Program-made: the position numbers and the translations under genes
Part shown: positions 7,193 through 37,792 of the stretch, piece by piece
Layout of the letters: each line of letters starts with the position of its first letter
How positions within the stretch are numbered: position 1 is the first letter of the stretch
Origin: Oceanospirillales bacterium
GTDB lineage: Bacteria; Pseudomonadota; Gammaproteobacteria; Xanthomonadales; SZUA-36
Direction: 5' to 3'
NCBI GenBank assembly: GCA_003232965.1
Contig: QIKG01000097.1
Coordinates: forward strand, 1-40,406
Length of the DNA stretch: 40,406 nt
The notes under the pieces: model-generated
Databases searched by the model: none
What the model was told of the DNA's origin: nothing
The model's input: only the letters and a program-made list of their open reading frames with translations

Positions 7193-7207
7193 CTGTTTTG
7201 CCTTGAC

Positions 7208-19684: not shown

Positions 19685-19705
19685 ATGTGACAAATTACTT
19701 ATAAA

Positions 19706-21883: not shown

Positions 21884-23569
21884 ATGAAAAGCATGGCAAA
21901 TAGAAAAGCAATTATTGTCATTGGGTCCGGTCGCAGCGGGACCTCTCTGGTAATGCAAGTTTTAAACTACTTAGGGGTTAGCCCCCTGGGGAAATTGCTC
22001 AAAGGAGATGTTAGCAATCCAAAAGGATTTTTCGAAGATACACGAATTCTTGAAATTCATAGGAGGCTCCTTAAATCTATCCAGCCACATACAAGTTTAC
22101 CGCTTTTGCCAGGTTGGTTAAGCAGCCCTGAAGCTGCGGAAGCTAAAGCAGCTTTAATAGGACATATCCATTCCAAAATTGATAATAAACAAACATTTGC
22201 TGTAAAAGACCCGCGTACATCTCTGCTGATTCCCCTCTGGCGTGAAGTATTAGTAAGTTTCAGTATTGAGCCTGTTTTTGTGATGAGTTATCGCGATCCC
22301 ACTATGGTATTTGAGTCCATGCAAAAATACAATAGTAAACCAGATGATTGGGGTCAGGGTTTATGGGATACACGCATTGTACACTCTGTCGTTGATACAG
22401 ATTGCAAATTCTTACCCATTAATTATGACCATTGGTTTGATTCCCCCACTGAAGTCATTTTAGCTCTTGCGAAAGCATGTGGCATTCGTCAGAACGCCAA
22501 AGTTAATGCCTTAATACAACAGCCAGACCTGATTATTAAATCTGATCTTAAACGCTCATTAAACAGCAGTGTTTATCAGCAAAAAGTTCCCAGTCATTCA
22601 CAAAAAATGTATGCATTAATACAAGCCTTTCAAAAAAACAAAGACTACTGCAAGGACTTATTAAATTATTGTGTTTATTTCAAAGAGTTTTATGATTCCT
22701 TAGTGTATGTTTCTTCCAGCTTTTCTAAACTTGAGAGTGAAAGAAACGAGGGGATAAAGCCTAGCCAACTGCTTGAGCAAATTGTCGCAGAGAGAGAAGC
22801 CATATTAACCACCCAAAAAGCAAGAAAACTGGAACACAAAGCTTTTCTTGCCAGTCTGGAAGAATTGCGTAAAAATCAGGGCAGCCTCAAAACTGAAATA
22901 CAGGGCGTTAGCCATCAGGGTCAGTCGCTCGATGGCATTGCCACTTTATTGCAACAACGCCTTGAGCTTGAAAAAACCGAAGGCCACAAAGTCAGCCAAC
23001 TGCTTGAGCAAATTGTTGCAGACAAAGAAGCCATCTTAACCACTCAAAAACAACGGGCACTGGAACACGAAGCTTTTCTTGCCAGCTTGGAAGAATTGCG
23101 TAAAAACCAGGGCAGCTTAAAAGCAGAAATTCAAAGCCTCTCACATCAAGGTAGCTCACTAAATAAAATCATTAATCTGCTTCAGAAACGCTTTGAGCAT
23201 GATAGAGAGGAAGAGCACAAATCCAGTCAGTTACTTGAGCAACTTTTAAACGATAAAGATGTCTCATTGAATGCCCTCAACCAAAGAACCGAAGAGCAAA
23301 GCAAAATGATCTCAACGCTACAAACAGGGAATATTAACAAGGACAGTGAGATATCCTTTCTACAGAAAGAGATAGAACGACTCAATAAACAAAATACTGG
23401 GATTAAAACTAAGAACATCAACTATCGTGAACGAAATAAAAATTATCGTGAAAAAGAGAAATATCACAGTGCGCGAATGGCTGAGCTTCGTTATCGCTTA
23501 ACCACCACACAAAAAAAGTTATCTGCGCTCGAAAACCAGTCCGTAATTAATAAAATCTTTAGAAAATGA
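21884..23569 (+). CDS. sulfotransferase domain fused to a long C-terminal coiled coil
   Basis: The N-domain has a 5'-PSB-like IIVIGSGRSGTSLV and a 3'-PB-like SYRDPTMVFESM. From residue 294 onward it is continuous Lys/Glu/Gln/Leu-rich heptad-like sequence, including two 77-aa repeats. Confidence 0.75.
   Translation: MKSMANRKAIIVIGSGRSGTSLVMQVLNYLGVSPLGKLLKGDVSNPKGFFEDTRILEIHRRLLKSIQPHTSLPLLPGWLSSPEAAEAKAALIGHIHSKIDNKQTFAVKDPRTSLLIPLWREVLVSFSIEPVFVMSYRDPTMVFESMQKYNSKPDDWGQGLWDTRIVHSVVDTDCKFLPINYDHWFDSPTEVILALAKACGIRQNAKVNALIQQPDLIIKSDLKRSLNSSVYQQKVPSHSQKMYALIQAFQKNKDYCKDLLNYCVYFKEFYDSLVYVSSSFSKLESERNEGIKPSQLLEQIVAEREAILTTQKARKLEHKAFLASLEELRKNQGSLKTEIQGVSHQGQSLDGIATLLQQRLELEKTEGHKVSQLLEQIVADKEAILTTQKQRALEHEAFLASLEELRKNQGSLKAEIQSLSHQGSSLNKIINLLQKRFEHDREEEHKSSQLLEQLLNDKDVSLNALNQRTEEQSKMISTLQTGNINKDSEISFLQKEIERLNKQNTGIKTKNINYRERNKNYREKEKYHSARMAELRYRLTTTQKKLSALENQSVINKIFRK
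22763..23455 (+). repeat. in-frame tandem repeat, period 231 nt (77 codons): two well-conserved units plus a diverged third
   Basis: Units start at 22763, 22994 and 23225. Units 1 and 2 begin AGCCAACTGCTTGAGCAAATTGT and are close to identical by eye over the first ~130 nt. Unit 3 begins AGTCAGTTACTTGAGCAACTT. Confidence 0.85.
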
Positions 23570-23661
23570 CTTCTATCTGAAATTATTACTTGAATACAAT
23601 AAAAATTATATTATAAATGAAAAAGCCGATGCTTCTTACTGGTATGTCAAGGACTTATACG

Positions 23662-23690
23662 AGATCACTTAATGTGATCTTTTATCTTCT
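23662..23690 (+). terminator. candidate intrinsic terminator after the sulfotransferase-coiled-coil gene
   Basis: AGATCAC-ttaat-GTGATCT hairpin (7 bp) followed by TTTTATCTTCT. The stem has only 3 GC pairs. Confidence 0.35.
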
Positions 23691-23716
23691 CAACAACAGA
23701 TTTTGAGACTGCGTTT

Positions 23717-24610
23717 ATGAGACCCACACCCATTCACCTTCAGTTTGCCACAAGAAAAAGCGATGTTAAGACTTTGCGACCTTTTATCGAACAGGCTGAG
23801 AATACTCATAGTTATATCGCAGAGAGACTTTTCAATTTACAAACGAACATAGTTATCACGGATAAAAATCCGGATTACTTAATCATTATTAACAACCCGA
23901 ATTACGAGATATTACACCCACGCGAAAAAACAATCGGTATAGTAACAGAGCCTTCATGGTCTCCGAATTTTACTTCCGAATATTTCCAGAAGAGGTGTTC
24001 AGTTGTAATTTCTCATTTTTTTGCTCCCACTGATAACGCTATTTATGGTCATAGCTTATGTTTACCGTGGGTTACGACAAAAGATGTATCTGTAATTCCT
24101 GAGAAGTCAAAAAAGTTAAGTATCATCCTTTCTCCACTAAAACCCAGAATAGAAAGGTCAAAAGCCAATTATCTCTTTCGCCACAACTTGATAAAGTTGA
24201 TTCTCGACTCAGATATTGATTGCGACATTTATGGCGATTGGGCTGGCACAGATTCAAGGCTGAAGGGGTTCGTAGAAAATAAGATTGACGCTCTTTTGCC
24301 TTATGAGTTTTCGGTAGCCATAGAAAACACATGTGAAGCCGGCTACAGCACCGAAAAACTAATTGATTGTTTTTTAGCGCAGACACAACCAGTGTACATG
24401 GGTGATCCTTTTGCACAACTCCATTACGGTGACAACGCCATAATCCCCATAGATAGAGACAACCCATTAGAGGTTTTGCAAAAAATCAACAATAAAGAAA
24501 TTAAATATAACTATGATGCAGTTTTAAAGGCAAAAAACAAATACTTATCCTCATACAACTTGTTTAAAAGAGTGCTTGAGGTTATCGATGATTTAGAGTC
24601 ATCAAAGTGA
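23717..24610 (+). CDS. GT10-family fucosyltransferase (alpha-1,3/4-FucT-like)
   Basis: LLPYEFSVAIENTCEAGYSTEKLIDCFLAQTQPVYMG matches the GT10 signature (..F.ENs...gY.TEK..d......P.y.G). The GDP-fucose genes gmd and fcl are in the same window. Confidence 0.75.
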   Translation: MRPTPIHLQFATRKSDVKTLRPFIEQAENTHSYIAERLFNLQTNIVITDKNPDYLIIINNPNYEILHPREKTIGIVTEPSWSPNFTSEYFQKRCSVVISHFFAPTDNAIYGHSLCLPWVTTKDVSVIPEKSKKLSIILSPLKPRIERSKANYLFRHNLIKLILDSDIDCDIYGDWAGTDSRLKGFVENKIDALLPYEFSVAIENTCEAGYSTEKLIDCFLAQTQPVYMGDPFAQLHYGDNAIIPIDRDNPLEVLQKINNKEIKYNYDAVLKAKNKYLSSYNLFKRVLEVIDDLESSK

Positions 24611-24679
24611 AAGACTAAGCTCATCATTACCAAACAGTCAATTCTAATTTGGTATGCCACCTAGCTCGTCCTATCATAA

Positions 24680-26266
24680 TTAGTTTACTTGCTTTTTTAT
24701 GGATTCTTCCCCCCGTATTCTTTTGGTGTCTAATTTCATCAGCATCTTAATAACGGGCTTAGGCTCATTGAAATCCAAAAGCCTATCAAAACTTTCCTTC
24801 TCATTTACCAAACATCGGGCAACCGAGGCCACAATGCGAGAAGTGGTATTGTATGGCTTTGAGTAGTGTGCGAGGGTCTCTCTATTCGCACAATGATTAT
24901 CTGTTTGAAGGACAGAGAGACTTACCATGTGTCTATCTTCATAAAAAAATTCGGGATCTTCTTCTGCCTTTATGCCCCTGCTCATCCATGCGCCATGATC
25001 ACCAAAGACTACCAACATGGCTGATGGGTCATTGATGCTTATTATGCTTGCTGCTTTTTCTAAAATTTTATCTAACTGTTCAGCACCATCTAGGAAGTAG
25101 TTTCGATACGCATCTTGTGCATCAAGGTCAGTATGACGATAATTTTTTTTCACATGACCATTTGGTCGATATGAGTAAAATATTTTAAGTTGCGGTGCTT
25201 TACTATTAGCCCCATCTCTAACCTCTTCCAATACCTTTTCAGGCCATGATTTGCCAGTATATTTAATAATTGTTTTCCGGCCAAACAGTTTTGTAGTTAA
25301 ATGCGTGATATTTTTAAACTCGCCAATGTTGACACATACACCAAACGCTCTTAATTTATGATATAAACTATCAGCGACATCCACGCACTGAACTGTATCA
25401 CTCAATGTATGAAACTGACCGATAACATATCGATCTATGTATGGGCCTTTTTCTCCAAAATAATAACTAGCATACCCGGTTGTTACCTCATAACCATTTT
25501 GCTTGAACAAGGTACTAAGAACTGATGGTTTCATACCATTAAAATAGTCCCTACTATTAGTGAGACCTCTCTGGTCAAGGCGCATTACCCCGTTAAGGGA
25601 TGGTTTAGTTGGCACAGACACTGATGCAGAATGCTCAAACTCGATGAAAGATTTTTTGAGTTCTCTCTCATAAGGAAGTTTTTCTATCCCTAAGTATTTT
25701 TTTGCAATATACGGTGGAATCATTGAGTCAAATGCCAATAAGTAAACATTTGGCCTCTGCTCAAAGGTAATATCTGAAAATTGCTCTAAAAAGTGATTCT
25801 CAGTAGCTGTCAATTTGACCTCTGTCCCAAAGGCAGCCTTATCTGTGGTGACCAGTGGTGCCAGAACAAAAACAACTGCAACAGCTAGATAAAATACAAT
25901 ATTGGGTACTGATGGGAGCACTTTTTTATAGGCAAGTAGCAACAAAACAACTATGAAGCTAATAAGAAATATGCCAAGATAACCGCTTGTAAGGTCAGAG
26001 AAAGTATTAGTGTAAATCAGCTTGAGCTCAAGTGCTGATAATGCAATAAAACTTGCAATGGCTAGAGTATATAACCGTGTCGAAATAAGTCCAATTAATG
26101 TAATTAAAAACAAACTGGCCAAGGCTACAAGAAAAATATATACATAAACTAGCAGTGCGCTTTCTAAACTTTCATTTAATATAAGCTGTAATACTGGCTC
26201 GAAAGCCAGACACAATGAGAGGAAGAAGCTAAAGCTACTCCATTTAACCTTTTCAGTTAACGTCAT
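24680..26266 (-). CDS. membrane-anchored alkaline-phosphatase-superfamily enzyme (sulfatase/LtaS/phosphoglycerol- or phosphoethanolamine-transferase-like)
   Basis: About 5 N-terminal hydrophobic spans precede a soluble domain with PNVYLLAFDSMIP and MLVVFGDHGAW, which look like metal/nucleophile motifs of the sulfatase-like fold. There is no C/S-x-P-x-R arylsulfatase motif. Confidence 0.65.
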   Translation of the reverse strand: MTLTEKVKWSSFSFFLSLCLAFEPVLQLILNESLESALLVYVYIFLVALASLFLITLIGLISTRLYTLAIASFIALSALELKLIYTNTFSDLTSGYLGIFLISFIVVLLLLAYKKVLPSVPNIVFYLAVAVVFVLAPLVTTDKAAFGTEVKLTATENHFLEQFSDITFEQRPNVYLLAFDSMIPPYIAKKYLGIEKLPYERELKKSFIEFEHSASVSVPTKPSLNGVMRLDQRGLTNSRDYFNGMKPSVLSTLFKQNGYEVTTGYASYYFGEKGPYIDRYVIGQFHTLSDTVQCVDVADSLYHKLRAFGVCVNIGEFKNITHLTTKLFGRKTIIKYTGKSWPEKVLEEVRDGANSKAPQLKIFYSYRPNGHVKKNYRHTDLDAQDAYRNYFLDGAEQLDKILEKAASIISINDPSAMLVVFGDHGAWMSRGIKAEEDPEFFYEDRHMVSLSVLQTDNHCANRETLAHYSKPYNTTSRIVASVARCLVNEKESFDRLLDFNEPKPVIKMLMKLDTKRIRGEESIKKQVN

Positions 26267-26342
26267 TATAAAAACTCAAGTTGATAATGTGGTCTTGTCT
26301 TATACTCAGCTTACTTGTGCCTAGGCGCAATTTGAGCTCACC

Positions 26343-27764
26343 TTATTCTATGTCCTGAACGCATAAGTATATAATACGATTTCCGTTATTTACTTCGAGA
26401 GATTTTTTAATAGAAAAATATTTTTTCAAATGTTTTTCGAGCTCAACTCGACTGTAATCTTTATATTTATCTTCTTTATTTCGCAGCAAAGTAATCACTT
26501 TATCGTCTTTCCTAGATACATACTCTATAACAAGCTTTTTTGTTAATCCGGCTAACCACTCAATAAACTCTTCTAATGGAATATTTGCAGTCATAACCAC
26601 ATGATGCACAAGTGCCAAACACAAAACTAGATCAGGTTTACTCCGTGTTTGCAGGTCGCTACGCTCACGGTTCCGCCAGCCCCAATTTGGTGATGGGTCT
26701 GCAATGTTTTGGACTAGCGGTAAAATATTTGAAGGTTTATTTGGGTCAAGGTATAGCCTCTCAACTGCCACATGGTCAATATCGGTAGAAACAACCTGTT
26801 CGCATTCTGCAGCTGCTATTCTGGAAAACTGCCCTGTATTACAACCAATATCCCAAACAACATTTGGTTTTTCTGTCGTCACCGCATTTCGAATGAAGTT
26901 TTCTTTGAGTAAATGATCGCTATCTGAATAGTTATGAAATTGGGTGTAATCGCCCCATTCTGAGCCAGTAGCTTCCCACTTTAAATTCTTGATGAGTTTT
27001 TGTAACTTGCGCACATTTACTAAAATTAACTCACGATTGAAACCCGCCGATTTCAAACTTGAACGAACATTCTCTGTTGAACTGCCATGCCGTTGGTCCA
27101 TTCTGGATTGCAACCACACATGGCTCATTACACCTTTACGAAAACGATCACGTAAACTAAATAGTGAAGCCGCTGCCTGTACAGCCACACCATCTATAGA
27201 TGCTCGCATAAATGGTTGGAAGTTACAGCCTTTATAGGCTTGTAACAATAGCGGAAACAAAAACATTTCACAAAACTGTTTGTAACCTGTCCAGGGAGCA
27301 CCTTTTTGCAGAATTTCAAATGAAGGGATATCAATAAATACTGGTTTTGAATTAACAAACTGAATGTTATAAGGTGTTGCATCCTTTAATGTAAAGCCAT
27401 TACTTACAGCTCTTTCAACTAGCTGTAGTTGAAGAATGGCCGCAGACTTCAACATACTAAAGGTCCACTCGTACGGATAACTAATTACTGCAATTTGGTC
27501 ATGCTCAAGAAAACCAGCCCATAGCAACTTTATTTCTTCCGGTAATGGGTTCTCCTCCGGGGAAAGCTCCTTAGTTCCAATAATTTTATTAGCATCTATC
27601 AGCTTCTTATAAAAGCCCTTATTACTTAATTTTCTGTATGTTTCTAGGGCAGATTCACTTAATCCGCGAAATACACGACCCTGAAAATGATAGACGCGAC
27701 CATCCCGGTCACGAAATGAACCGGCATTTACTCTGGCCGATGTCGGCTCCTGATTATCCATCAT
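26343..27764 (-). CDS. class I SAM-dependent methyltransferase with a large conserved N-terminal domain
   Basis: The C-terminal half has SAM motif I, VWDIGCNTGQFSRIAA. The N-terminal half has FRDRDGRVYHFQGRVFR, ISYPYEWTFSMLK and LKDATPYNIQFVNSKPVFIDIPSFE. The start is set at ATG 27762-27764 (MMDNQEP); the track ORF extension to 27845 overlaps the upstream small gene. Confidence 0.8.
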   Translation of the reverse strand: MMDNQEPTSARVNAGSFRDRDGRVYHFQGRVFRGLSESALETYRKLSNKGFYKKLIDANKIIGTKELSPEENPLPEEIKLLWAGFLEHDQIAVISYPYEWTFSMLKSAAILQLQLVERAVSNGFTLKDATPYNIQFVNSKPVFIDIPSFEILQKGAPWTGYKQFCEMFLFPLLLQAYKGCNFQPFMRASIDGVAVQAAASLFSLRDRFRKGVMSHVWLQSRMDQRHGSSTENVRSSLKSAGFNRELILVNVRKLQKLIKNLKWEATGSEWGDYTQFHNYSDSDHLLKENFIRNAVTTEKPNVVWDIGCNTGQFSRIAAAECEQVVSTDIDHVAVERLYLDPNKPSNILPLVQNIADPSPNWGWRNRERSDLQTRSKPDLVLCLALVHHVVMTANIPLEEFIEWLAGLTKKLVIEYVSRKDDKVITLLRNKEDKYKDYSRVELEKHLKKYFSIKKSLEVNNGNRIIYLCVQDIE

Positions 27765-27960
27765 CGAGATCTTCTTGCTCTTCTTTTTGAGCAAAGCCCA
27801 GTGCTGCTCGTAAGCGATGCCAATACATTTTAATAATAACCCCAATTGCTGCTACACCACCGAGAATTACCTGAAGCAACACACTTCCGGTGCCAGGATC
27901 CAAATAGGCATAAGCATTAAGAGAAAATAACATTGTAAGAACAAAAACTAATAATTTCAT
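27754..27960 (-). CDS. small membrane protein (signal-like N-terminus, YLDPGTGS motif, one further hydrophobic span)
   Basis: MKLLVFVLTMLFSLNAYAYLDPGTGSVLLQVILGGVAAIGVIIKMYW.. with an acidic tail, EEQEDLDDG. Its stop overlaps the methyltransferase start by 11 nt (ATGATGGATAA). The start is chosen at ATG 27958-27960; the track uses GTG 28017. Confidence 0.5.
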   Translation of the reverse strand: MKLLVFVLTMLFSLNAYAYLDPGTGSVLLQVILGGVAAIGVIIKMYWHRLRAALGFAQKEEQEDLDDG

Positions 27961-28147
27961 ATATCCATCAAGCTCCACTGAATTAAAAAACGCGTATTTC
28001 ATTAACCATTTAATCACATATCATACCCGAATACCCGAATAACCATTAGTGCTGCTGCATAAAAGTCGCGAAAACTAGGGCCTTGCCACAGTTAAACTAA
28101 AAACAAACATAAGCTAACCTAACTCTTAATTTTTCGTGCCCATAGTG

Positions 28148-28876: not shown

Positions 28877-29063
28877 TTATTCCCACCTTTCTTCAATATC
28901 AGCAGTGCCGATTGCAGATTATTCAGTAATTTGAGAACAACTCTAAATACACTTATTCCCTGCTTATCTATAATGATCAATTCTACCTAAATTCGACTAC
29001 AGTTCCATTCGTCACTACAATTACTTACAATTAACCCCAGCCAAACACGAGTTATGGATTTAA

Positions 29064-32000
29064 ATGCATCAAACGATGGTTGCTGTTGTTCTAAACACAC
29101 TGGACTGCCCATCTTTGGGCACGCTCAGCCGTGCCGAAGGGCTTTTAACTTCTCTTAACAGTATAATCAGCCAAGAAACCACCACTTTAATTGAAATTAT
29201 TATAGTTACAGCGCCGGATTCCACTGGTGAAGCACCTTATCAGAATATTTTGGAGAAAAACCCCTGGATTCCGTCCGTACGGTTTTTATATTGTACTTCA
29301 GACCAGCAGGCGCAGGCTGCCTACACCCAGAGTATTGCCGATTACTTTATATTTCTTTCTGTGGGTGATGAACTACTCCCCGGGGCTGTTAAGTTGTTGC
29401 TCGATCATATTACAGAATCAGAGCACCTCAGCTGTTATGGTGCCTGCCGTTGGTCTGATAATACAGCGTCTTGGTCACATCCATCCGTTGACCAGTTTTT
29501 TGAAATGCCCGCCGTTACCACTATAACGGAGCTTTTACAGGCCAGCACTCTTGCTAAGACCTCGCTAGGGTTATTGCACCGATCACTTTTGCAGGAAAAA
29601 ACAGACCAAACCTCTCCCAAAGCCATTATTGTTAAAGACTATATCTGTATTCGCCAAGCGCCGGGTGAAATCAGCTTCAGCCCCATATACCCCTACCCCA
29701 AGCCAATATACCAAAAGGCCATATTACCTGCGCAAATGCCTGTGAGTGAACTTACGACGAGGGAGGGTGGAAGGCGCTCTGCTGTCTGGCTATTTGGAGA
29801 GCGTGCCGGGGAAAGTGCAGAAGATAATGCCTGGGCCTTATTTAAATATTGTGTTGATAACTGCCCCTATATCGAAAGTTATTATGTTCTAAAACATGAA
29901 AAAGTAATTTCACCTGACCCCAAATATCAAAGCCGGATACTCATTAAAGGCAGCCCTGAATGGAGTAAACACATAGAGCGAGCAAGCCATATGTGCTTTA
30001 CTGATACGGCTGCCGATATTCTTGTATCGTCACTTGATGCTTTAAATTATAACGATGTTGATTTTATATATCTCACCCATGGCTATCTGGCATACAGCCC
30101 CGGGGTATACCAACGCGGGCATCCATATTTTAACCGGGTTATTTGTACCAGCGCGATGGATGTTGACGCTGCTTCACGGTTCTGGGGGTTTCCCAAATCC
30201 AGCTTTATCCAAACTGGCTTGCCGCGATGGGATAACTTAAGAGATAGCTCCGCCGGGCACAAAGAAATCTTAATCCTACCCACCTGGAGAAAAACATTTG
30301 ACTCATCCCACTGGAGTGCCAGCGAGGCCTTAGCTGAAGATGACATCCACAAATTTAAGACCAGCGCCTACTTTAAGCATTTTAATGCTCTTCTGAAATC
30401 TGCAGAATTGAATAAATTGCTACTCTCACATGATGCCCGGGTTACTTTTAAGTTGCATTTCCGGCTGGAAAAATACCTGCCTTTATTTGAGAAAACCGTT
30501 GATTCAAAGATTAGAATTTCTACCCGGGCAAACGATAACCGCAATATTAAAGCGCTGCTAGAAGATGCCAGCATGTTGATAACTGATTATTCCAGTGTAA
30601 TGTTTGATATGGGTCAAATGGAAAAGCCGGTTATTTGCTATCAGTTTGACAAGGCCGCTATGCTCGGCGAGCGTAAGATTGATGCCTTTGCGCTCGCCGA
30701 TACCCGAATGTTTACGGATATGTGTTCTACACAAGTGGCTGTAATTCATCAACTTGAAGAATATTTACTCTCCGGCTTTACCATTCCCGAACATAAATTA
30801 CGTCGACTCAACCACACCCTACCATTTCGCGACCGGGGAAATTGCAAGCGGGTGGTGAATAAAATCCAACAACTGCAAAATAAACCCGCTCACGGGAGCG
30901 CCAAAGTAGCAAAAATAATCAAACAGCCCGATATAACTTCTTATTTAAAACGACTGGATTGGGTTAAAACTGATGAATCAACAAAAATTGGGTATTTGCT
31001 GAACATCCCCATCTCAAAACCGACCGCACATATAGCCATAAACCCGGATAACTGGAAAAAAATTATCAGTGCCGGGGATATCGATATTTTGCTCATTGAG
31101 CCACACTTAAACGCCCGTAGCCAATGGGCACCTGTTTTCTTTAATGCTGGAGGTTTGTTAGCGTTTCTGCATGAAATCAGCGACTTTGCGCAACAACATG
31201 GGGTAGCAAGTGTTTTATTAGAGCCGCACTACCATCTGTTCTTTGATAACCTACTACCCTTAAACGACCACTTTGACCACTATGTGCCATTAGCTACCGC
31301 TACGGATATATCACCTGCCTATAGTATCTCTGTGATTATCCCTGCCTATAATTGTGAACACTATATTAGTCATTGTATAGATTCTATTCTCAGGCAAAGC
31401 TACACCGGTAGTGTAGAGTTGGTTATTGTTGATGATGGCAGCACAGACACCACCTGGGATGTTATTACAAGTTATTCCCACGTACATTCCAATGTAACAG
31501 CTATCAGGCAATATAACGCTAAACAGGGAATGGCCCGGAACCGGGGGCTTGATGCGGCTAGGGGTCAATTTGTCACCTTTGTAGATGCCGATGATCTTCT
31601 ACCGGTCAATTGTCTTGCTGATTTGTTCCATGAAATCAGTTTATCGGGTGCCGATATTTCCATTGGGCTTGTCGCTTCTACAGACGAAAAGGGAAACACA
31701 CAGCAAATAAACCAGTCTTACTACCATTATTCAAAAGCGCCGCGGAGTTTTACTCCGGCAAGCTGGCCACATGTTTTTTACGACCCCAGTTGTGTCGGCA
31801 AGCTAATTTCAAGACGCTTTCTGCTTGAACACAAGATATATTTCCCACAGAGCTATCATGAAGATCAGGTTTTCAATTTCAAACTGTTTACCAGTGCCAC
31901 AACAATTTGTAAAACAAATGCAGTGGTGTATCTGTATATTGCCAGACCAGCGGCTAGTCCGGCACTTTCGGGAACACAAACATTTACGGCTGAAAAATTC

Positions 32001-32783
32001 CGGCAAATACTCATCGCCGCGCAGTTGGCCATATCAATTCTGGATACATCGGGCCTGCCGAGGCGAGTTAAAAACCGTGCCCTTGGGTTTTTAGTCCTTC
32101 GCTACGACAGGTTTCTCTGGAAACAACAATCCATACCAACAAACAAAGAAGCTTCAGAAGTACAGCTACAGGCTTTTGATTTGCTGGCTGCTTTGCTCAA
32201 GAGGGTACCGGATGAAACTATCTGGAAACAAGCAAAACACCTTCCATTGGCCTTGCTGCTGCTTAAAAGGCAGCAATTTCCGCTGGTTGCCCAAGCTTTG
32301 AAAGGCAACAAGAGTGCGTCCATCGAGTATTTATACCGCGAAGGCACGATTCCTGAAAAAATTCTGGGCTTATTAAAAGCCGGTGGCCGGCTAAGTACTC
32401 GCTACAATTACTACAAAGCAATGCCATTGCTTAGCGAGAAGAGTACAATTATCACTCAAATGGATTATGGCTATAGACTTGGATCCATTTTTGTTGATAT
32501 TTTAAAACGGCCCATCTTAATATTTCTTCTGCCTTTTCGCTTGATACTGCTGGCTTTTGATATGCTTAGCAAAAGAGGTCGCGAGAAACAAAATAAACTT
32601 GAGAAGGAAATAATTAATAACCATAATCAACAGCAGCTCATTGAGCGTTCTATGATTTTAGAAAAATCAGCGGCGCATCGCCTTGGTGTGGCAATACTTG
32701 AGACATTTTCAATATCACCCGGTAAAATTATTAAACTACCCGGTAAAATCAAACAAATATATATACAAACTCGCTCACTCTAG
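29064..32783 (+). CDS. 1239-aa multidomain polymerase-like enzyme: degenerate GT2-like N-domain, TagB/TagF-type CDP-glycerol glycerophosphotransferase domain, canonical GT2 domain, C-terminal hydrophobic/amphipathic tail
   Basis: TagF-type motifs: WLFGERAGESAEDNAWALFKYC, ILILPTWR (about 30272-30290) and MLITDYSSVMFDM (about 30575-30610). GT2 motifs: ISVIIPAYNCEHYISHCIDSILRQSY..VELVIVDDGSTDTT..VTFVDADDLL (from about 31321). The tail has ILIFLLPFRLILLAFDML and AAHRLGVAILETFSISPGKIIKLP. Confidence 0.8.
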   Translation: MHQTMVAVVLNTLDCPSLGTLSRAEGLLTSLNSIISQETTTLIEIIIVTAPDSTGEAPYQNILEKNPWIPSVRFLYCTSDQQAQAAYTQSIADYFIFLSVGDELLPGAVKLLLDHITESEHLSCYGACRWSDNTASWSHPSVDQFFEMPAVTTITELLQASTLAKTSLGLLHRSLLQEKTDQTSPKAIIVKDYICIRQAPGEISFSPIYPYPKPIYQKAILPAQMPVSELTTREGGRRSAVWLFGERAGESAEDNAWALFKYCVDNCPYIESYYVLKHEKVISPDPKYQSRILIKGSPEWSKHIERASHMCFTDTAADILVSSLDALNYNDVDFIYLTHGYLAYSPGVYQRGHPYFNRVICTSAMDVDAASRFWGFPKSSFIQTGLPRWDNLRDSSAGHKEILILPTWRKTFDSSHWSASEALAEDDIHKFKTSAYFKHFNALLKSAELNKLLLSHDARVTFKLHFRLEKYLPLFEKTVDSKIRISTRANDNRNIKALLEDASMLITDYSSVMFDMGQMEKPVICYQFDKAAMLGERKIDAFALADTRMFTDMCSTQVAVIHQLEEYLLSGFTIPEHKLRRLNHTLPFRDRGNCKRVVNKIQQLQNKPAHGSAKVAKIIKQPDITSYLKRLDWVKTDESTKIGYLLNIPISKPTAHIAINPDNWKKIISAGDIDILLIEPHLNARSQWAPVFFNAGGLLAFLHEISDFAQQHGVASVLLEPHYHLFFDNLLPLNDHFDHYVPLATATDISPAYSISVIIPAYNCEHYISHCIDSILRQSYTGSVELVIVDDGSTDTTWDVITSYSHVHSNVTAIRQYNAKQGMARNRGLDAARGQFVTFVDADDLLPVNCLADLFHEISLSGADISIGLVASTDEKGNTQQINQSYYHYSKAPRSFTPASWPHVFYDPSCVGKLISRRFLLEHKIYFPQSYHEDQVFNFKLFTSATTICKTNAVVYLYIARPAASPALSGTQTFTAEKFRQILIAAQLAISILDTSGLPRRVKNRALGFLVLRYDRFLWKQQSIPTNKEASEVQLQAFDLLAALLKRVPDETIWKQAKHLPLALLLLKRQQFPLVAQALKGNKSASIEYLYREGTIPEKILGLLKAGGRLSTRYNYYKAMPLLSEKSTIITQMDYGYRLGSIFVDILKRPILIFLLPFRLILLAFDMLSKRGREKQNKLEKEIINNHNQQQLIERSMILEKSAAHRLGVAILETFSISPGKIIKLPGKIKQIYIQTRSL

Positions 32784-32795
32784 GCCTCCGTCATT

Positions 32796-33494
32796 ATGAT
32801 TCTCAGAAACAATACGAAGTTTGTACTAGTTGGCCTTGGTCGTTGCGGTTCAAATCTTTTGAAATTTGGTCTCAGGCAAAACGCCCAAATTTTTATGGCC
32901 GGGGAATATTTCAACAAACATAGCCACCCCGAATCCCTTCAGCAGGATGGCAAAGCCAGGGCCCAAGCCTTTTTTGAAGGCAGCCGGCGAAATAGCGTAC
33001 GGGCCGTCGGATTCAAGATATTTCTACATCATGGTCGCAAACATGGTGTTAATACCGTTTGGAAGTATTTACGGAAAAATAGAGAAATAAAAATACTTCA
33101 TTTATCCCGGGAGAACACATTTAAGCGGTTATTAAGTCTGGAAGTCGCAAATGTTCGCGGCCAGTGGCTGAATGATGGCCTTGGTACTGATGATATCGTT
33201 ATCACACATTCCAATGAGTGGTGGCAAGAAAAAATAGAGAGCGATTTAAAAAAAGAAAGTGCACTGACAAAAACTTTCCACAAGCATGACCGCCTTCACA
33301 TAAGCTATGAAAACCTGATCCAGGACTGGGATCAGCTGACTACCGACATCCAGAGTTTTGTTGGTGCTCAAGCCACTTCTGTCGAAAAGTCATTACGCAA
33401 GCAAGAATATATGCCGCTTTCACAAAGGTGCCCGAACCTAGCAGAATTACAAACTTTTTTCCAAAACAGTCCTTATCGCTGGATGTTTGAATAA
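32796..33494 (+). CDS. sulfotransferase (NodH/Stf0-like)
   Basis: FVLVGLGRCGSNLLKF is a P-loop-like 5'-PSB motif and KILHLSRENTFKRLLSLEVA is 3'-PB-like. Size (232 aa) and pattern fit NodH/Stf0-type enzymes (from memory). Confidence 0.6.
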   Translation: MILRNNTKFVLVGLGRCGSNLLKFGLRQNAQIFMAGEYFNKHSHPESLQQDGKARAQAFFEGSRRNSVRAVGFKIFLHHGRKHGVNTVWKYLRKNREIKILHLSRENTFKRLLSLEVANVRGQWLNDGLGTDDIVITHSNEWWQEKIESDLKKESALTKTFHKHDRLHISYENLIQDWDQLTTDIQSFVGAQATSVEKSLRKQEYMPLSQRCPNLAELQTFFQNSPYRWMFE

Positions 33495-34405
33495 TGTTAA
33501 ATATCGCCATTATCATTTTAAACTGGGAAAATTCGCCCGCTACACTCGAATGTGCACGCTCTGTACTAGATGATATGGATTTGAGTTCTGAGCATGTCCA
33601 TAGTCATTTGTGGATAGTTGATAATGGCTCAAGCGACCAATCTGCTGATGTTATAAAAAACTGGGTTAATACTAATGTGGCTGATAACCTTGTTACAGTG
33701 ATTGAAAACCCTGAAAATGCTGGTTTTTCTGCAGGTATGAATAAAGGCATTTTTGCTGCTGCTAAAAACGCCCAAGTTGATTATTTTTGGTTGCTTAATA
33801 ACGACCTTACAGTTGAAACAGGCTCGCTAATACAGCTTTCTCAAGCTATTATGAAAGACCCCGCTGTGGCAATATGGGGCCCTACGGTAATCGATGCCGC
33901 AACCTTCAAAGTGCAGTGTGCTGGCGGCTGTATTTACTATCGCTGGCTGGGTAAGGAAAAGCGTGCATTCGCCGGACTGAGGACAAACCAACTGCCACAT
34001 ATAGAGCCACCTGCACTGGACTATATTTATGGTGCGGCTATGTTAATAAAAAAGGAGCTTTTAGATCGACTGCACGGATTAAACGAAGACTATTTTCTCT
34101 ATTACGAAGAACTGGACCTCGTAGAGCACTTAAACACTAGTGAAACACTGGGGTGGTGCCAGGATGCCAGAGTGGTACACCAAGGTGGCGATTCTTCCCC
34201 CGACAAGAGAGCTAAGGTATTTGCCGCCTACCACGCCGCTTTAAGTGCATTCAAATATACCTGGCGCTACCACCCATTGTGCTTGCCATCCGTCATTCTA
34301 TTTCGCGTCTTTGGTCTGCCGCTGTTCGCCTTGAGGTATAAGAACCCAAGGCTGGCGCTGGCACCCTTCCGGGCACTACGGGACTTTTTACGGCCGGCTG
34401 CATAA
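33494..34405 (+). CDS. glycosyltransferase family 2
   Basis: IAIIILNWENSPATLECARSV, WIVDNGSSDQS and FWLLNNDLTVE fit the GT2 rhamnosyltransferase-like architecture. The start overlaps the upstream stop (TAATG). Confidence 0.8.
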   Translation: MLNIAIIILNWENSPATLECARSVLDDMDLSSEHVHSHLWIVDNGSSDQSADVIKNWVNTNVADNLVTVIENPENAGFSAGMNKGIFAAAKNAQVDYFWLLNNDLTVETGSLIQLSQAIMKDPAVAIWGPTVIDAATFKVQCAGGCIYYRWLGKEKRAFAGLRTNQLPHIEPPALDYIYGAAMLIKKELLDRLHGLNEDYFLYYEELDLVEHLNTSETLGWCQDARVVHQGGDSSPDKRAKVFAAYHAALSAFKYTWRYHPLCLPSVILFRVFGLPLFALRYKNPRLALAPFRALRDFLRPAA

Positions 34406-34408
34406 GCT

Positions 34409-35425
34409 TTACGGTTCTGGCTCAGCACCTCCACCACAGTGGAGAAATACCAAGTGCACATAAAGCACCCATCGCAAAACACCTTTGCGTAAGCCAAGCT
34501 GATGCGCTGTTTTAATTCTCTTATATGGACTTATTTCAGCTAAGTTCGCATACTTTTCAAGATAACCCAAAAGCTCAGGACTTTGAATATTCCGCAGTTT
34601 TAGACGAGTTGTGAGTTCCTTAGCCTGGTTAATGGTCTGACATAGCTCGTTCGACCCTTTTGTCCATGAACTTGCCCACTGTTTGTAATTTATTAGCAAG
34701 CGCCCAATGGAAGTAACACCTATTGTATTACCCGTGTGCTGCCTGTATTTAATCAGCTTTTCATCTATAAAAATCAATTTTCCACAAGCGGCAGCGGTTA
34801 AAGCCAACCACCAGTCATGCATAAGCGCTGTCTCAGGTATTGGGCTGGCAAGCTCTGCTAATTTCCTGTTTATTGCCATGCAGCACCCGGGGATATGATT
34901 GAGGCTTAATAAGCTATTCAGTTTAGTATTACCCCCTTCATTTAAACCCCTTTGAAAAGAGTAAGCCGTTTCAACAGGTTGCAGCTCCGAGTCAGTTAAT
35001 TCAATATTGCTGTAGATCAAACATGGACCATTTTCGGCAGCAAATTTATCATAAAATTGTTGGGTTTTAGTCGGCTCCCAATAGTCATCTTGATCGCTAA
35101 ACATAATCAATTGCGCCTTGGTTTCCAGGGCATGAACCAATAAACGAGCAAAACTTGCTCGGGGGCCTGTATTTACTGAATTAACAGACTCAATATGTTT
35201 AATTCGAGGGTCGGCGTGGCAATATTTATCAATTAGTGTCGTTGTCGTATCAACAGAGCCATCATCACGAATCAAAAGCAGCCATTGCTTGAAGGTTTGT
35301 GCCTGGATACTTTCTATTTGGCAGGCTAAATATTCGGCACCATTATAAGTGGATAGTAAAATACAAACCTCAGCCCTACCCATAGTTTTAGCAGGAACTT
35401 TAGGGATTTGTGGGTTGGCTGTCAT
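34409..35425 (-). CDS. glycosyltransferase family 2
   Basis: Motifs VCILLSTYNGAEYLACQIESIQAQTFKQWLLLIRDDGSVDTT and FSDQDDYW (DxD). An alternative start is at Met15 (35383). It is convergent with the preceding GT2, with only a 3-nt gap. Confidence 0.8.
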   Translation of the reverse strand: MTANPQIPKVPAKTMGRAEVCILLSTYNGAEYLACQIESIQAQTFKQWLLLIRDDGSVDTTTTLIDKYCHADPRIKHIESVNSVNTGPRASFARLLVHALETKAQLIMFSDQDDYWEPTKTQQFYDKFAAENGPCLIYSNIELTDSELQPVETAYSFQRGLNEGGNTKLNSLLSLNHIPGCCMAINRKLAELASPIPETALMHDWWLALTAAACGKLIFIDEKLIKYRQHTGNTIGVTSIGRLLINYKQWASSWTKGSNELCQTINQAKELTTRLKLRNIQSPELLGYLEKYANLAEISPYKRIKTAHQLGLRKGVLRWVLYVHLVFLHCGGGAEPEP

Positions 35426-35839
35426 AGTTTAAGAGTCATCTGTGGCTGGCCTATATTTGGCATATATTTAAGTTATTAAAAACCATTGTTTATTAGTCAT
35501 AACCCCGACTTTTTCAGAAACCTCTATCCTGAGCATTTTACATCGTTCCTTCCGGAAGCGACAGCCAGGATTTTCAGGGCTGTACCCCATTCATAGGTCA
35601 CCTCTCACTTTTACTTTGGTGGTAAAAAAATCGAAAGGATAAACCATGGCCTGCTTCTAATACAGTCTCAGACCAAATTACAGAAAAGAATGTTACGCTA
35701 CCCGCCGGAATTGATGTATGCTGGTTCAGCTGACCTGAAAAGGGCGGCATAACTGATGGAAAACAATTCCTAAGCAACCTGTCCTAAATATGGGGGTGCA
35801 GCTCTGCTAATAGCATTAATAATAAACACTATAAATTAT

Positions 35840-36802
35840 ATGCCTGATAAAAACTTAATATTTTTAATATCACTACCTAGAAGCGGCTCAACTTTAACGC
35901 AAAAAATACTTGGGGCTAGCTCTGATATCTATACTCGGTCTGAACCCTGGCTTATGCTTGCACCCTTATATGCTTTAAAAAAAACCGATTGTATTGCTGA
36001 TTACAGCAAACCACTTGAGTATACTGCCACACAAGATTTTATATCTCACCTACCTGGCGGGGGCAGAAAAAAATATATTGAACATATCCGCAATGCTTAT
36101 ACCTCAATATATTCCGAATATTCGAGCGCGTATGGTAAAAGATTTTTTTTAGACAAAACCCCCAGATATTACCTTATTGCGAATGAGCTCAAAGAGGTTT
36201 TTCCAAACGCTAAAATAATCATACTCCTTAGAAACCCGCTCGCAGTAATGAGTTCAGTTATTAAAATCTGGGCAAATAAAGATTTAACACGGCTTGCTAA
36301 TTTCAAAATTGACTTAGTCACTGGTCTCGATATTCTTTCAAAGCTAGTCGCAATAAAAAAGAATGATTTCTTTTTTTTACGCTATGAAGATATTTTATCT
36401 GATCCGGTAAATACTTTCCAAGAGGTGTTTAACTATTTGGGAGTAAAATTTAATCAAAACATCCTTACTGAGTACAATAATAGTGATGATGAAAAATGGC
36501 CTTATGGTGACCCTCACAAAGTATATAAAAGAAAAACTATTGATACAGATAATGCAATGAAATGGGTTGATAATTTAGATGACCCGCAGCACTGGCGACT
36601 GCTTTATGATTATCTTAATTATATTGGTAAAAAGAGGTTTGAGTTACTTGGGTATGATTATGAATCAGCCTCAAAAACACTAGTGTCAAACATGCCTTGT
36701 TCATGCATTCGAGAGCTTGAAGACAACACAACTTCATTATATGAATTTTTGGGAATACCAACCGATGAGATAGGTAAAGAAATCGTTGATCAACAATCAT
36801 AA
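35840..36802 (+). CDS. sulfotransferase
   Basis: LIFLISLPRSGSTLTQKILG is the 5'-PSB motif and IIILLRNPLAVMSSVIK is the 3'-PB motif. Confidence 0.8.
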   Translation: MPDKNLIFLISLPRSGSTLTQKILGASSDIYTRSEPWLMLAPLYALKKTDCIADYSKPLEYTATQDFISHLPGGGRKKYIEHIRNAYTSIYSEYSSAYGKRFFLDKTPRYYLIANELKEVFPNAKIIILLRNPLAVMSSVIKIWANKDLTRLANFKIDLVTGLDILSKLVAIKKNDFFFLRYEDILSDPVNTFQEVFNYLGVKFNQNILTEYNNSDDEKWPYGDPHKVYKRKTIDTDNAMKWVDNLDDPQHWRLLYDYLNYIGKKRFELLGYDYESASKTLVSNMPCSCIRELEDNTTSLYEFLGIPTDEIGKEIVDQQS

Positions 36803-36871
36803 GCTGGTAACACGGTGTACTACATACAACTGCAGGAGGCCGCTTAAACGACCATGCAACTGACTGTTCCT

Positions 36872-36901
36872 TTAAGCATGTGGATGCTTAATTGCTTGGT
36901 T
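36872..36901 (+). terminator. weak candidate terminator hairpin
   Basis: TTAAGCAT-gtgg-ATGCTTAA (8 bp, AT-rich) followed by TTGCTTGGTTT, 70 nt after the stop at 36802. Confidence 0.25.
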
Positions 36902-37000
36902 TAGAGTAACCAAATTTCTTGAGGGTGTAATTTAAACTATGTTGACACAGAATTTTGAACGCCCTCTTCTAGTCGATGGATTCATTTAATAAATAAACCA

Positions 37001-37579
37001 CTACAGGCATTCAAATTTATAGTTAAACAAGCAAATGTCGTCTGAAAACACCTCCGCCACCCTTTCCCTGCTTCTATCATTATAGTATATCGCAAAGGCT
37101 TCATGCTCAGTTTTATTTACGTGGGGTAACAGTAGTCCCTGCAGGCCTAACAGATCACATATTCCGCTAAAGTCTCTTTCAAGATTTTCCATCCTAATAA
37201 TGCGGTCAACCCCGACTTCTCCGTCTAGATAAAGCATCTTCGAACATGAGTGCTTAATCATGTAATCAACGAACGTGTCGTCATTAAGGTCCGACCAAAG
37301 ACGGTCTTCGAACTTGCCGGATGTTCTCTCCCGCCTCATGTCCCGGTATTTTACCCATGACACCACTCTTTCCCACGGGTTTCGGACGATTGAGAAGCTA
37401 AAATAAGCTGCATACTTTGCGGGGTACTTTTTCTTGATTTCTTTCACACCCCAATGCTTTTCCGTGTGCCCACAATAGGTAGATGTGTTGAAAGGCCCGC
37501 CAAGTAACAATGTTTCCACACTCTCACCTGCACACTTAGGTACATGAATAAAAATACATTTGTAATCGTCGGAAATCAT
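37001..37579 (-). CDS. sulfotransferase family 2 (Sulfotransfer_2-like)
   Basis: Motifs CIFIHVPKCAGESVETLL and FSIVRNPWERVVSWVKY. The start is chosen at ATG 37577-37579 (MISDDYK); the track ORF extends to 37639. Confidence 0.75.
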   Translation of the reverse strand: MISDDYKCIFIHVPKCAGESVETLLLGGPFNTSTYCGHTEKHWGVKEIKKKYPAKYAAYFSFSIVRNPWERVVSWVKYRDMRRERTSGKFEDRLWSDLNDDTFVDYMIKHSCSKMLYLDGEVGVDRIIRMENLERDFSGICDLLGLQGLLLPHVNKTEHEAFAIYYNDRSRERVAEVFSDDICLFNYKFECL

Positions 37580-37792
37580 GGGGTTGTGAAACAAAAATTC
37601 ATTACAATAACCGGTATCAACAAAGGGCAATAAGGGCACAGGTTTATATTACGGAAGCAACGGGTTCTTACGCTCATCAGGATAGACCTGCGTCCAATTA
37701 TAATTAATTAGTTCAGCGTTTCGCTTACGTCCATATATTACTTGAATTCATATAAAACAAAAACAAATATATTTGTACCCCCATAAAACAAA

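Follow-up and report, generated by a model that had tools for sequence, protein, structure and literature searches.

A predicted surface-glycan locus with four sulfotransferases of four sequence families

The DNA described here, hereafter the window, is a stretch of 40,406 nucleotides from an uncultured marine Oceanospirillales bacterium (assembly GCA_003232965.1, contig QIKG01000097.1, positions 1 to 40,406 of the forward strand). Four of its open reading frames (ORFs), ST1 to ST4, are confirmed by motif and profile comparison and, for ST1, by structure comparison as sulfotransferase-fold proteins of the type that uses 3'-phosphoadenosine 5'-phosphosulfate (PAPS), each with an intact 5'-phosphosulfate-binding (5'-PSB) loop and 3'-phosphate-binding (3'-PB) motif. 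They represent four families, lie within ~16 kb and are interleaved with glycosyltransferase (GT) genes. The window is likely to be a surface-glycan locus that sits beside genes for the lipopolysaccharide (LPS) core, relies on Wzm/Wzt for export and has its product sulfated by the four enzymes. The source is closely related to the marine Lysobacterales metagenome-assembled genome (MAG) D96SM.bin.42 (GCA_021648045.1), the nearest relative found. The product is probably a heavily sulfated surface glycan.

Genes were called as ORFs and annotated by Pfam and NCBIfam profile scans, with gathering thresholds of 27 bits for Sulfotransfer_3 (PF13469) and 22 bits for Sulfotransfer_2 (PF03567). The superfamily is defined by the 5'-PSB loop, P-K/R-x-G-[ST]-[ST], and by the 3'-PB motif, an R...S pair spaced by ~8 residues that follows strand 3. 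The loop is seen in all four ORFs and aligns to the loops of NodH, TPST and the CurM sulfotransferase; the 3'-PB residues are R137/S145 in ST1, R105/S114 in ST2, R131/S138-139 in ST3 and R86/S93 in ST4, aligned to solved sulfotransferases for the first three, while the evidence for ST4 is the Pfam match and the motif. ST1 was modelled, and the fold of ST2-ST4 is taken from profile matches. Single-sequence searches of the PDB with ST1, ST2 and ST4 gave nothing useful, and family profiles were required. An initial annotation, made from the letters of this DNA alone, had picked out the four ORFs by PAPS-binding-type motifs; all four were located, the quoted motifs were found, and the profile and structure comparison that it had proposed as a check does align them with the PAPS-binding residues of solved enzymes. 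Its coordinates also fit all four ORFs; ST4 is on the minus strand and extends to 37639, the end given as 37579 being an internal ATG. Its count of three sequence types has to be revised: pairwise BLASTP finds no significant similarity among ST1-ST4 (E > 0.1), which makes them four families, whereas Pfam divides them into two (three Sulfotransfer_3-like, one Sulfotransfer_2).

ST3, with LPRSGST at amino acids (aa) 12-18 and LRNPLAVMSS at aa 130-139, reaches 105.3 bits against Sulfotransfer_3 (E 7e-30). It matches the CurM sulfotransferase (PDB 4gbm) at 1.6e-11 and the OLS sulfotransferase at 3.3e-11, the P-R-S-G-S-T loop and the R-x-P-x-x-V-x-x-S motif being aligned with the solved structures, and the NCBIfam NoeE profile at 1.3e-28 (99.8 bits, far under the equivalog cut-off of 500). 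ST4 carries HVPKCAGES (aa 32-40) and VRNPWERVVSW (aa 85-95) and matches Sulfotransfer_2 with 52.9 bits (E 7.5e-14) over profile positions 4-252 of 252, as the initial annotation had supposed. Its ORF opens with GTG, and translation is likely to start at the ATG at 37579 (M21). ST2, with GLGRCGSN at aa 13-20 and LSRENTFKRLLS at aa 103-114, belongs to a family in which R16, G18, S19, R105 and S114 are invariant over 17 members; the family profile matches the 'LPS sulfotransferase NodH' of PDB 9vki at 1.7e-10, the match covering profile positions 5-178 of 233 and bringing both the R-x-G-S loop and the R...S motif into register. The NodH-like character claimed earlier for ST2 thus stands, and because there is no NCBIfam equivalog match the protein is best described as NodH-like and not as an orthologue. 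For ST1, GSGRSGTS (aa 14-21, nt 21923-21946) and YRDPTMVFES (aa 136-145, R137...S145 at nt 22289-22318) form the two motifs. An alignment of 37 N-terminal domains has GxGRSGTS, K108/D109, R137 and S145 invariant and P110 and R111 nearly so, and its profile reaches TPST, SULT (SULT7A1) and the CurM sulfotransferase, both motifs in register, with E-values of 2e-7 to 7e-6. Two relatives of ST1 exceed the Pfam cut-off (32.3 and 43.3 bits). The AlphaFold2 (AF2) model of ST1 has a pLDDT of 90.8, and its top 26 Foldseek matches in the PDB are all sulfotransferases. An exact look-up of the ST1 sequence returned no record. An exhaustive search with the domain returned 13,958 representative clusters, 4,958 of them at E <= 1e-10.

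Wzm and Wzt are the sole exporter found in the window. Wzt scores 197 bits against the NCBIfam Wzt/RfbE model, 168 bits against TagH and 81 bits against Pfam ABC_tran, and lies 78 bp from the next gene; Wzm has six transmembrane (TM)-like segments and 25.5 bits against ABC2_membrane (cut-off 26.9). No Wzx-type flippase came up in Pfam and NCBIfam scans of the window. In the ABC-transporter-dependent mode, assembly of the whole glycan takes place at the cytoplasmic face, on a lipid carrier, and soluble sulfotransferases would therefore fit use of cytoplasmic PAPS before export; TM-like segments are predicted in none of ST1, ST2, ST3 and ST4. Larger Wzt proteins of 625-703 aa occur in several related cassettes (loci are numbered L001 onwards, here L002, at 5528-7639, L056, L062, L064 and L113), where a ~400-470-aa N-terminal extension precedes the ABC domain and could be an alternative cap-recognition module.

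In the mechanism proposed for the window, the four sulfotransferases would each add O-sulfate to a position or sugar of their own in the lipid-linked glycan, working at the cytoplasmic face, where they have access to PAPS; Wzm/Wzt would then export the sulfated glycan, and a WaaL-family ligase would probably attach it. ST2 would partner the TagF-like/GT2 polymerase and the next GT2, products of its flanking genes, ST3 and ST4 would be accessory modifiers that vary between close relatives, and ST1, drawn from a separate cassette, would cap the chain or sulfate it during polymerisation at a set distance from the membrane. A further route for sulfur would lead from cysH to sulfite and through SqdB to UDP-sulfoquinovose, adding a sugar with a C-S sulfonate. 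PAPS would be made by genes elsewhere in the genome.

Gene order ties ST2 to the polymerase. The ST2 gene is separated by 12 bp from the polymerase gene upstream and overlaps the GT2 gene downstream by 1 nt. The polymerase ends in a hydrophobic tail (aa 1139-1171) and carries the tail motif [Y/H]RLG twice at its C-terminus, at nt 32472-32492 and at nt 32676-32696. The same polymerase-ST2-GT2 order is found in the MAG (L001) and, at 40% identity, on an unrelated metagenome contig (L003), and because of this recurrence ST2 would be expected to modify the product of the TagF-like/GT2 polymerase.

ST1 differs in architecture. Beyond the sulfotransferase domain, aa 281-561 hold one proline in 281 residues, show their strongest hydrophobic period at 3.50 (8x background) and give SMC-like matches. 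This half is encoded in part by a 231-bp tandem repeat (22756-23242; 2.1 copies, 75% match by TRF), and gain or loss of the 77-aa repeats would alter how long the coiled coil is. The MAG homologue has the same 77-aa repeats, and the MAG assembly breaks off just past that gene. ST1 has no membrane-proximal anchor within its own chain; a tail motif is found instead on the adjacent small coiled-coil protein, CC_21082 (SIRIGQTF..PGKKTIFFPYYF, nt 21601-21624; the protein ends ...SIRIGQTFVQALSQPGKKTIFFPYYF). That tail is homologous to the C-termini of proteins that join sulfotransferase, coiled coil and tail in a single chain, namely the 441-aa P0019, with the tail SYRLGNLFV..PGKNTILLPFRLL and a gene immediately 5' of wzm-wzt (L002), and a 425-aa version from Microbulbifer agarilyticus (L010) that ends ...SFRLGNLLVRMVKLP. 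CC_21082 is accordingly proposed as a membrane or partner anchor for ST1. The MAG (L009) has this gene pair too, as a 203-aa coiled-coil-tail protein and a 572-aa ST1 of 70% identity.

Within the best 149 ST1-family members, a C-terminal extension of at least 100 aa is present in 55, and extension lengths in the family range from 0 to ~540 aa. By a crude heptad and proline test, 23 of the 55 are coiled coils, and 19 of the 55 end in the tail S[FY][RQK][LIV]G-x-x-hydrophobic, against ~0.5 estimated by chance. The motif, in the form S/Y-x-[RQK]-[LIV]-G-x-x-hydrophobic, is usually followed by PGK..LP; the two C-terminal tail motifs of the 1239-aa polymerase are of this same kind, and further sites are in P0019, L009 (15389-15499) and L010 (6709-6810 and 15334-15378). 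It is probably a membrane or docking element, and no description of it was found. Tandem copies are seen in a MAG-derived genome with a 986-kb contig (L004/L005, 6937-9997), where three ST1-family paralogues lie beside a GT2 plus TagF-like polymerase and an IspD-SDR (TarI/J-like) fusion; polymers like teichoic acids, but sulfated, are hinted at by this arrangement.

Whitfield and colleagues (PMC11231755) describe an extended coiled coil as 'a characteristic marker' of terminators in the assembly of ABC-dependent O-polysaccharides and place the terminating enzyme at its distal end. ST1 matches this architecture, with a catalytic sulfotransferase head distal on an extended coiled coil, and by analogy it might be a sulfate cap combined with a ruler, a reading that we hold as possible and rather doubtful. 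In all characterised terminator-dependent systems, Wzt carries a C-terminal carbohydrate-binding module (CBM) (PMC11231755); the Wzt of the window, 231 aa of nucleotide-binding domain only, has none, which weakens the case for capping. Alternatively, the coiled coil may be a scaffold that places a chain-modifying sulfotransferase within the polymerase complex. No protein of the coiled-coil terminator type headed by a sulfotransferase turned up in the literature search, an absence that is no proof of novelty.

The genes upstream of ST1 point to a recurrent cassette. SqdB is homologous over its full length to Arabidopsis SQD1 (PDB 1qrr; E 1e-130 over aa 2-381) and keeps the catalytic T...YHxxK residues (GTMGEYG and YHxxK); its score against NCBIfam NF041015, 445.8 bits, is below the equivalog cut-off of 575. 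A scan of GTDB species genomes gave 80 SqdB loci, and in 63 of them, from many phyla, a PseB-like homologue is directly adjacent (within 700 bp). A short-chain dehydrogenase/reductase (SDR) gene is also adjacent in 23, wzm and wzt are present in 8, a GT related to GT_17864 in 7 and an ST1-like gene in 7-8. Where the PseB-like-SqdB pair occurs in other phyla, it is surrounded by genes for GT4, Wzx, Wzy_C, asparagine synthase (AsnB), DegT and another sulfotransferase, a set that belongs with polysaccharides and not with sulfolipids. The reverse test, an independent search of metagenomes that started from nothing but the ST1 P-loop peptide, returned 40 loci, 16 with a GT_17864-like neighbour and seven with SqdB on the same contig, six of these seven with an adjoining PseB-like gene. 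GT_17864 homologues beside ST1-like genes are also seen in L002, L009, L010, L011 and L030, and the GT1/GT4-family GT likewise recurs as a partner of ST1-family genes. From these neighbourhoods we infer that ST1 belongs to a recurrent cassette of PseB-like dehydratase, SqdB, SDR, dual GT and sulfotransferase. The PseB-like-SqdB module suggests an undescribed nucleotide-sugar pathway that supplies a sulfoquinovose-type sugar to bacterial surface glycans; no UDP-sulfoquinovose synthase was found in the literature as a polysaccharide-cluster gene in bacteria, which by itself does not establish novelty.

A cysH gene accompanies the module. It lies inside the low-GC glycan island and scores 222 bits against NF002537 (cut-off 154) and 137 bits against PAPS_reduct, with CC/CxxC and ECGLH motifs; the CC/CxxC cysteines are typical of CysH-family members that reduce adenosine 5'-phosphosulfate (APS) and contain an Fe-S cluster. 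SQD1 takes sulfite as its sulfur donor, and sulfite is the product of CysH-family reductases. Because SQD1-type enzymes use sulfite, it is a plausible inference that cysH is a dedicated sulfite supply for the sulfonated sugar made by SqdB. A cysH gene of at least 40% identity is found in four of the 80 SqdB loci (L009, L011, L055 and L074). It is within 10 kb of SqdB in Motilimonas pumila and two MAGs (L055 and L074), when ~0.5 of 80 loci would be expected by chance on a rough estimate, and D96SM.bin.42 also has cysH near SqdB (L009). On metagenome contig L091, SqdB and a more weakly matching cysH homologue (35% identity) are ~13 kb apart. In Motilimonas pumila the order is wzm, wzt, cysH, SDR, PseB-like, sqdB, SDR, GT_17864-like and then, further on, ST1-like, nearly the content of the window. 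The most inclusive version of these ideas, that the ST1 family is a new chemical class of terminator and ruler that caps ABC-exported polysaccharides with sulfate, within a widespread and undescribed PseB-like/SqdB/SDR/dual-GT/sulfotransferase cassette (with or without cysH) that adds a sulfoquinovose-type sugar from cysH-derived sulfite, is unlikely as a whole.

Several observations weigh against a locus in which four working sulfotransferases decorate one exported glycan. Scored alone against Sulfotransfer_3, ST1 obtains 17.5 bits and ST2 26.9 bits, the latter 0.1 under the cut-off, and the Foldseek TM-score of the ST1 model is modest (~0.5). The substrates are guessed at by family resemblance, with fucose as the acceptor of ST3, which is NoeE-like, and either a uronic acid or N-acetylhexosamine (HexNAc) as that of the Sulfotransfer_2 enzyme ST4. 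The window has no initiating phosphoglycosyltransferase (WecA/WbaP), and none of cysC, cysN, cysD and cysQ is among its annotated ORFs, the missing cysC/cysNC having been pointed out already in the initial annotation. In the MAG, ST2 (L001 10001-10444) has lost 75 aa in frame (residues 84-158) and with them the 3'-PB motif, and ST4 is missing although the flanking genes are 88-94% identical. Because of this deletion and this absence, not all four enzymes can be required for a viable glycan, and ST2-ST4 behave as accessory modifiers of the serotype kind; strains probably differ in their sulfation pattern. ST3 is retained there at 94% identity. On the opposite side of ST3 the MAG has an unrelated 211-aa ORF, and its identification as a displaced ST4 was ruled out (BLASTP E 1.1).

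Of the readings that compete with a single sulfated glycan, the weightiest is that the locus makes two products, a serious possibility that falls somewhat short of an even chance. Cassette A (cysH to ST1 and GT10, 9616-24610, with Wzm/Wzt) and cassette B (polymerase to ST4, 29064-37639) would then build different glycans or domains, and ST1 would never share a chain with ST2-ST4. Many metagenome loci, as well as L002, L010, L011 and L030, do have cassette A genes and no B genes, L003 has the polymerase-ST2-GT2 triad and no A genes, and the two halves lie on different contigs in the MAG, although that break may stem simply from the ST1 repeat. Between the halves stands the 500-aa methyltransferase gene, which is conserved by lineage (4,117 homologues, the top 120 at 72-89% identity), lies near guaB, guaA and tadA in another genome (L008) and probably belongs to the backbone, splitting the glycan locus. 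A single product is favoured by the single wzm/wzt pair in 40 kb, with no further exporter, flippase or polymerase beyond the Wzy_C-family gene at 1685-2926, which is read as a ligase, and by the retention of both cassettes in both relatives. For the methyltransferase itself, a role as a WbdD-like kinase-methyltransferase terminator was ruled out by its lineage conservation and its housekeeping context elsewhere; phmmer found no relative in the PDB, and the AF2 model (pLDDT 72) retrieves only generic class-I methyltransferase folds, WbdD being matched through its methyltransferase domain alone. Because homologues are ~470 aa long, translation probably begins downstream of the TTG.

A single sulfated glycan would also be the wrong picture if one or more of the sulfotransferases acted on something other than a polysaccharide, such as lipid A or core, a lipo-oligosaccharide signal, a protein tyrosine in the manner of RaxST or TPST, or a small metabolite, with the glycan genes as mere neighbours. 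The nearest solved relatives of ST3 are a polyketide enzyme (CurM) and protein-tyrosine sulfotransferases, NodH, the nearest relative of ST2, sulfates lipo-chitooligosaccharides or LPS, and ST3 and ST4 are separate transcription units in a low-GC islet at the edge of the locus. ST1 and ST2, however, are embedded among GT genes in gene orders conserved in unrelated genomes, the window has no polyketide synthase, peptide-precursor or nod genes, and sulfotransferase genes inside polysaccharide clusters are a documented pattern, so that this reading is improbable. We give a similarly low rating to the idea that sqdB makes the membrane sulfolipid sulfoquinovosyl diacylglycerol (SQDG), that cysH serves ordinary assimilatory sulfate reduction and that both are in the locus incidentally. 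Canonically, SqdB/SQD1 serves sulfolipid synthesis, cysH is as a rule a housekeeping gene, and a GT1/GT4-family gene lies 2.9 kb downstream of sqdB (19706-20821; considered as an SqdX-like sulfolipid synthase, it lacked specific NCBIfam support). Against this stand the adjacency of this SqdB clade to PseB-like dehydratases in 63 of 80 genomes, amid Wzx, Wzy_C, GT4, AsnB, DegT, sulfotransferase or wzm/wzt genes, the overlap of cysH with an SDR gene in the low-GC island, and the recurrence of cysH by the module in Motilimonas pumila, L055 and L074 beyond the chance estimate. That the motifs are chance P-loop-like strings, or that the proteins are degenerate and inactive, is scarcely credible: the sub-threshold scores of ST1 and ST2 taken alone and the deleted ST2 of the MAG speak for it, but the family profiles reach solved sulfotransferases at 2e-7 (ST1) and 1.7e-10 (ST2) with motifs aligned, the motif residues are invariant over 37 and 17 homologues, respectively, and the ST1 family alone spans thousands of representative clusters at E <= 1e-10.

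The layout of the window is given in Table 1. GC content is 0.34-0.46 over ~9-37 kb and 0.47-0.53 in the first 9 kb, as is typical of a variable glycan island. In D96SM.bin.42, contig 13 (L009) carries ugd through SqdB at 94-99% amino-acid identity to the window, and contig 2 (L001) carries the right half of the locus, where the counterparts of the GT2 genes within 33494..35425 are 94% identical. An Rfam scan of the window gave zero matches, and a promoter and terminator scan stayed at about background, except for one strong hairpin at 37793-37811; ST4 lies downstream of this terminator as its own transcription unit.

Table 1. Genes and gene groups of the window (positions in the 40,406-nucleotide stretch).
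Feature	Position	Strand	Basis or remark
GT4, Wzy_C/O-antigen-ligase family protein, GT2, lipid A acyltransferase (LPS-core neighbourhood)	597..4730	.	Pfam
Wzy_C/O-antigen-ligase family gene	1685-2926		Pfam
TatD gene	directly after the 597-4730 group		
ugd, fcl, gmd (UDP-glucuronic acid and GDP-L-fucose supply)	5870..9365	-	Pfam, NCBIfam
cysH-family (P)APS reductase (9616-10269), then SDR epimerase/dehydratase gene (1-nt overlap)	9616..11186	+	NF002537, PAPS_reduct
Wzt (231 aa) and Wzm ABC-2 permease	11264..12732	-	NCBIfam, Pfam, TM segments
GT2 gene	between wzm and the PseB/FnlA-like dehydratase gene		
Nucleotide-sugar module: PseB/FnlA-like dehydratase (14620-15648), SqdB (15681-16826), SDR (16820-17812)	14620..17812	+	PDB, NCBIfam
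GT_17864 (606 aa; N-terminal domain and GT2), then GT1/GT4-family GT (Glycos_transf_1)	17864..20821	+	Pfam
GT1/GT4-family glycosyltransferase	19706-20821	+	
CC_21082, small coiled-coil protein with C-terminal amphipathic tail motif	21082..21720	+	heptad period 3.50
ST1, N-terminal sulfotransferase domain (aa 1-~260), then ~280-aa coiled coil (aa 281-561)	21884..23569	+	
GT10-like protein, fucosyltransferase C-terminal domain	23717..24610	+	PF00852 25.8 bits (cut-off 23.9)
Three genes: membrane alkaline-phosphatase/sulfatase-superfamily protein, methyltransferase, secreted protein	24680-28876	-	
Methyltransferase (500 aa; ~300-aa N-terminal domain, C-terminal class-I methyltransferase domain)	26343-27845	-	
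Multidomain polymerase (1239 aa), TagF-like glycerophosphotransferase domain and GT2	29064..32783	+	Glyphos_transf 81 bits, Glycos_transf_2 124 bits
ST2, NodH-like sulfotransferase, between polymerase gene and next GT2 gene	32796..33494	+	
Two GT2 glycosyltransferase genes	33494-34405; 34409-35425	+; -	Pfam
ST3, Sulfotransfer_3/1 enzyme, CurM-ST/TPST/NoeE-like	35840..36802	+	Pfam 105.3 bits
ST4, Sulfotransfer_2 (HNK-1/CHST-type)	37001..37639	-	PF03567 52.9 bits

Two further proteins of the window have counterparts in the MAG. The gene at 24680-26266 (-) encodes 528 aa with ~5-7 N-terminal TM segments; its MAG orthologue (L001 2353-3903) has a weak Pfam Sulfatase match (22.4 bits, cut-off 25), the C/S-x-P-x-R sulfatase signature was not found in the 528-aa protein by eye, and the protein may be a periplasmic decorating transferase like LtaS, EptA or OpgB and not a sulfatase. 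On the far side of the hairpin, which is bidirectional, a secreted 262-aa protein with a C-terminal coiled coil (37863-38651, -) gave no match in a Pfam scan. Its MAG counterpart (L001 14682-15470) is 88% identical, and a longer paralogue (72% identity) adjoins there (L001 16060-18018).

Much of the gene content listed in the initial annotation is borne out: sqdB by its full-length SQD1 match, gmd and fcl by 598 bits and 499.4 bits (the latter against a cut-off of 500), ugd by the Pfam scan, the TagF-like domain and, narrowly, the GT10 domain by the scores in Table 1. Its picture of an anionic, multiply O-sulfated, fucose-containing heteropolymer is reasonable as regards a strongly anionic sulfated fucose glycan and uncertain as regards one locus making one heteropolymer, two cassettes being possible. 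It had mentioned neither the cysH gene (9616-10269) nor the coiled-coil half of ST1, the Wzm/Wzt export route and the recurrent ST1 cassette.

Sulfated surface glycans affect cation binding, biofilm behaviour and bioactivity, and probably recognition by phages and grazers. Bacterial polysaccharide sulfotransferases are barely characterised and are sought as biocatalysts, and the locus supplies four different scaffolds together with probable partner GTs. [quoted passage not shown] If the SqdB module feeds polysaccharides, non-phototrophic bacteria would be an unrecognised source of sulfoquinovose-type organosulfur in sediments and seawater, which would bear on sulfoglycolysis in the sulfur cycle. 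The cassette is present in the cultured strains Microbulbifer agarilyticus DP4N21-6, Motilimonas pumila PLHSC7-2 and Parahaliea aestuarii S2-26, which makes these ideas testable.

The known coiled-coil terminators, WbdD (Escherichia coli O9a/Klebsiella pneumoniae O3), WbbB (O12) and ORF7 (O4) (PMC11231755, PMC3482155), share with ST1 an N-terminal catalytic head, a long coiled coil of variable length, a C-terminal membrane-type tail and genes beside wzm/wzt and polymerising GTs. In the window a separate small protein bears the tail, whereas P0019 and L010 have it in the same chain. By contrast, the heads of the known terminators are a kinase, a methyltransferase or a Kdo-transferase, that of ST1 is a sulfotransferase, and the window Wzt lacks a CBM; no sequence similarity of ST1 to WbdD or WbbB was found. 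Among the UDP-sulfoquinovose synthases SQD1, SqdB and Agl3, SQD1 resembles the window SqdB over its full length and in the catalytic T...YHxxK, but in the window the context is one of polysaccharide genes (PseB-like, SDR, GTs, wzm/wzt) and not of the sulfolipid genes sqdX/sqdD. To our knowledge, the only glycan precedent for a sulfoquinovose synthase is the archaeal N-glycan made with Agl3. Rhizobial NodH and NoeE are matched by ST2 (1.7e-10) and ST3 (1.3e-28), with PAPS-binding motifs aligned for ST2; the scores are far below equivalog level, nod genes are absent, and the acceptors are presumably polymer sugars and not lipo-chitooligosaccharides.

Sulfated glycans are also on record in bacteria. 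A sulfated O-polysaccharide of Pseudoalteromonas marinoglutinosa was reported in 1998 (PMC3210612), sulfated capsules are made by Vibrio sp. KMM 8419, with an ABC transporter and three sulfotransferases (PMC11641403), and by Cobetia marina KMM 1449, with an ABC transporter and sulfotransferase genes (PMC11766843), and the synechan (xss) cluster of Synechocystis PCC 6803 has two sulfotransferases (PMC8205485). Because of these published cases, sulfated glycan chemistry is not foreign to bacteria, and the suggestion of the initial annotation that it is more typical of algal or animal glycans is overstated. Synechan resembles the window in having sulfotransferases of distinct subfamilies in an exopolysaccharide cluster, their number being roughly equal to the sulfate stoichiometry; it is cyanobacterial, uses Wzx/Wzy polymerisation and has neither a coiled-coil sulfotransferase nor sqdB. 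The Vibrio and Cobetia clusters are likewise ABC-dependent, with several GTs and one to three sulfotransferase genes, and the Cobetia polymer carries glycerophosphate, in keeping with the TagF-like domain of the window. They differ in having their own PAPS genes (cysDN/cysC/cysQ) and Kps-type export, whereas the window has no PAPS genes and Wzm/Wzt beside the LPS-core genes and adds sqdB, cysH, a sulfotransferase-coiled-coil fusion and sulfotransferases of four families. With clusters of two or three sulfotransferases already published, the locus is a rich new instance of a chemistry known in marine bacteria.

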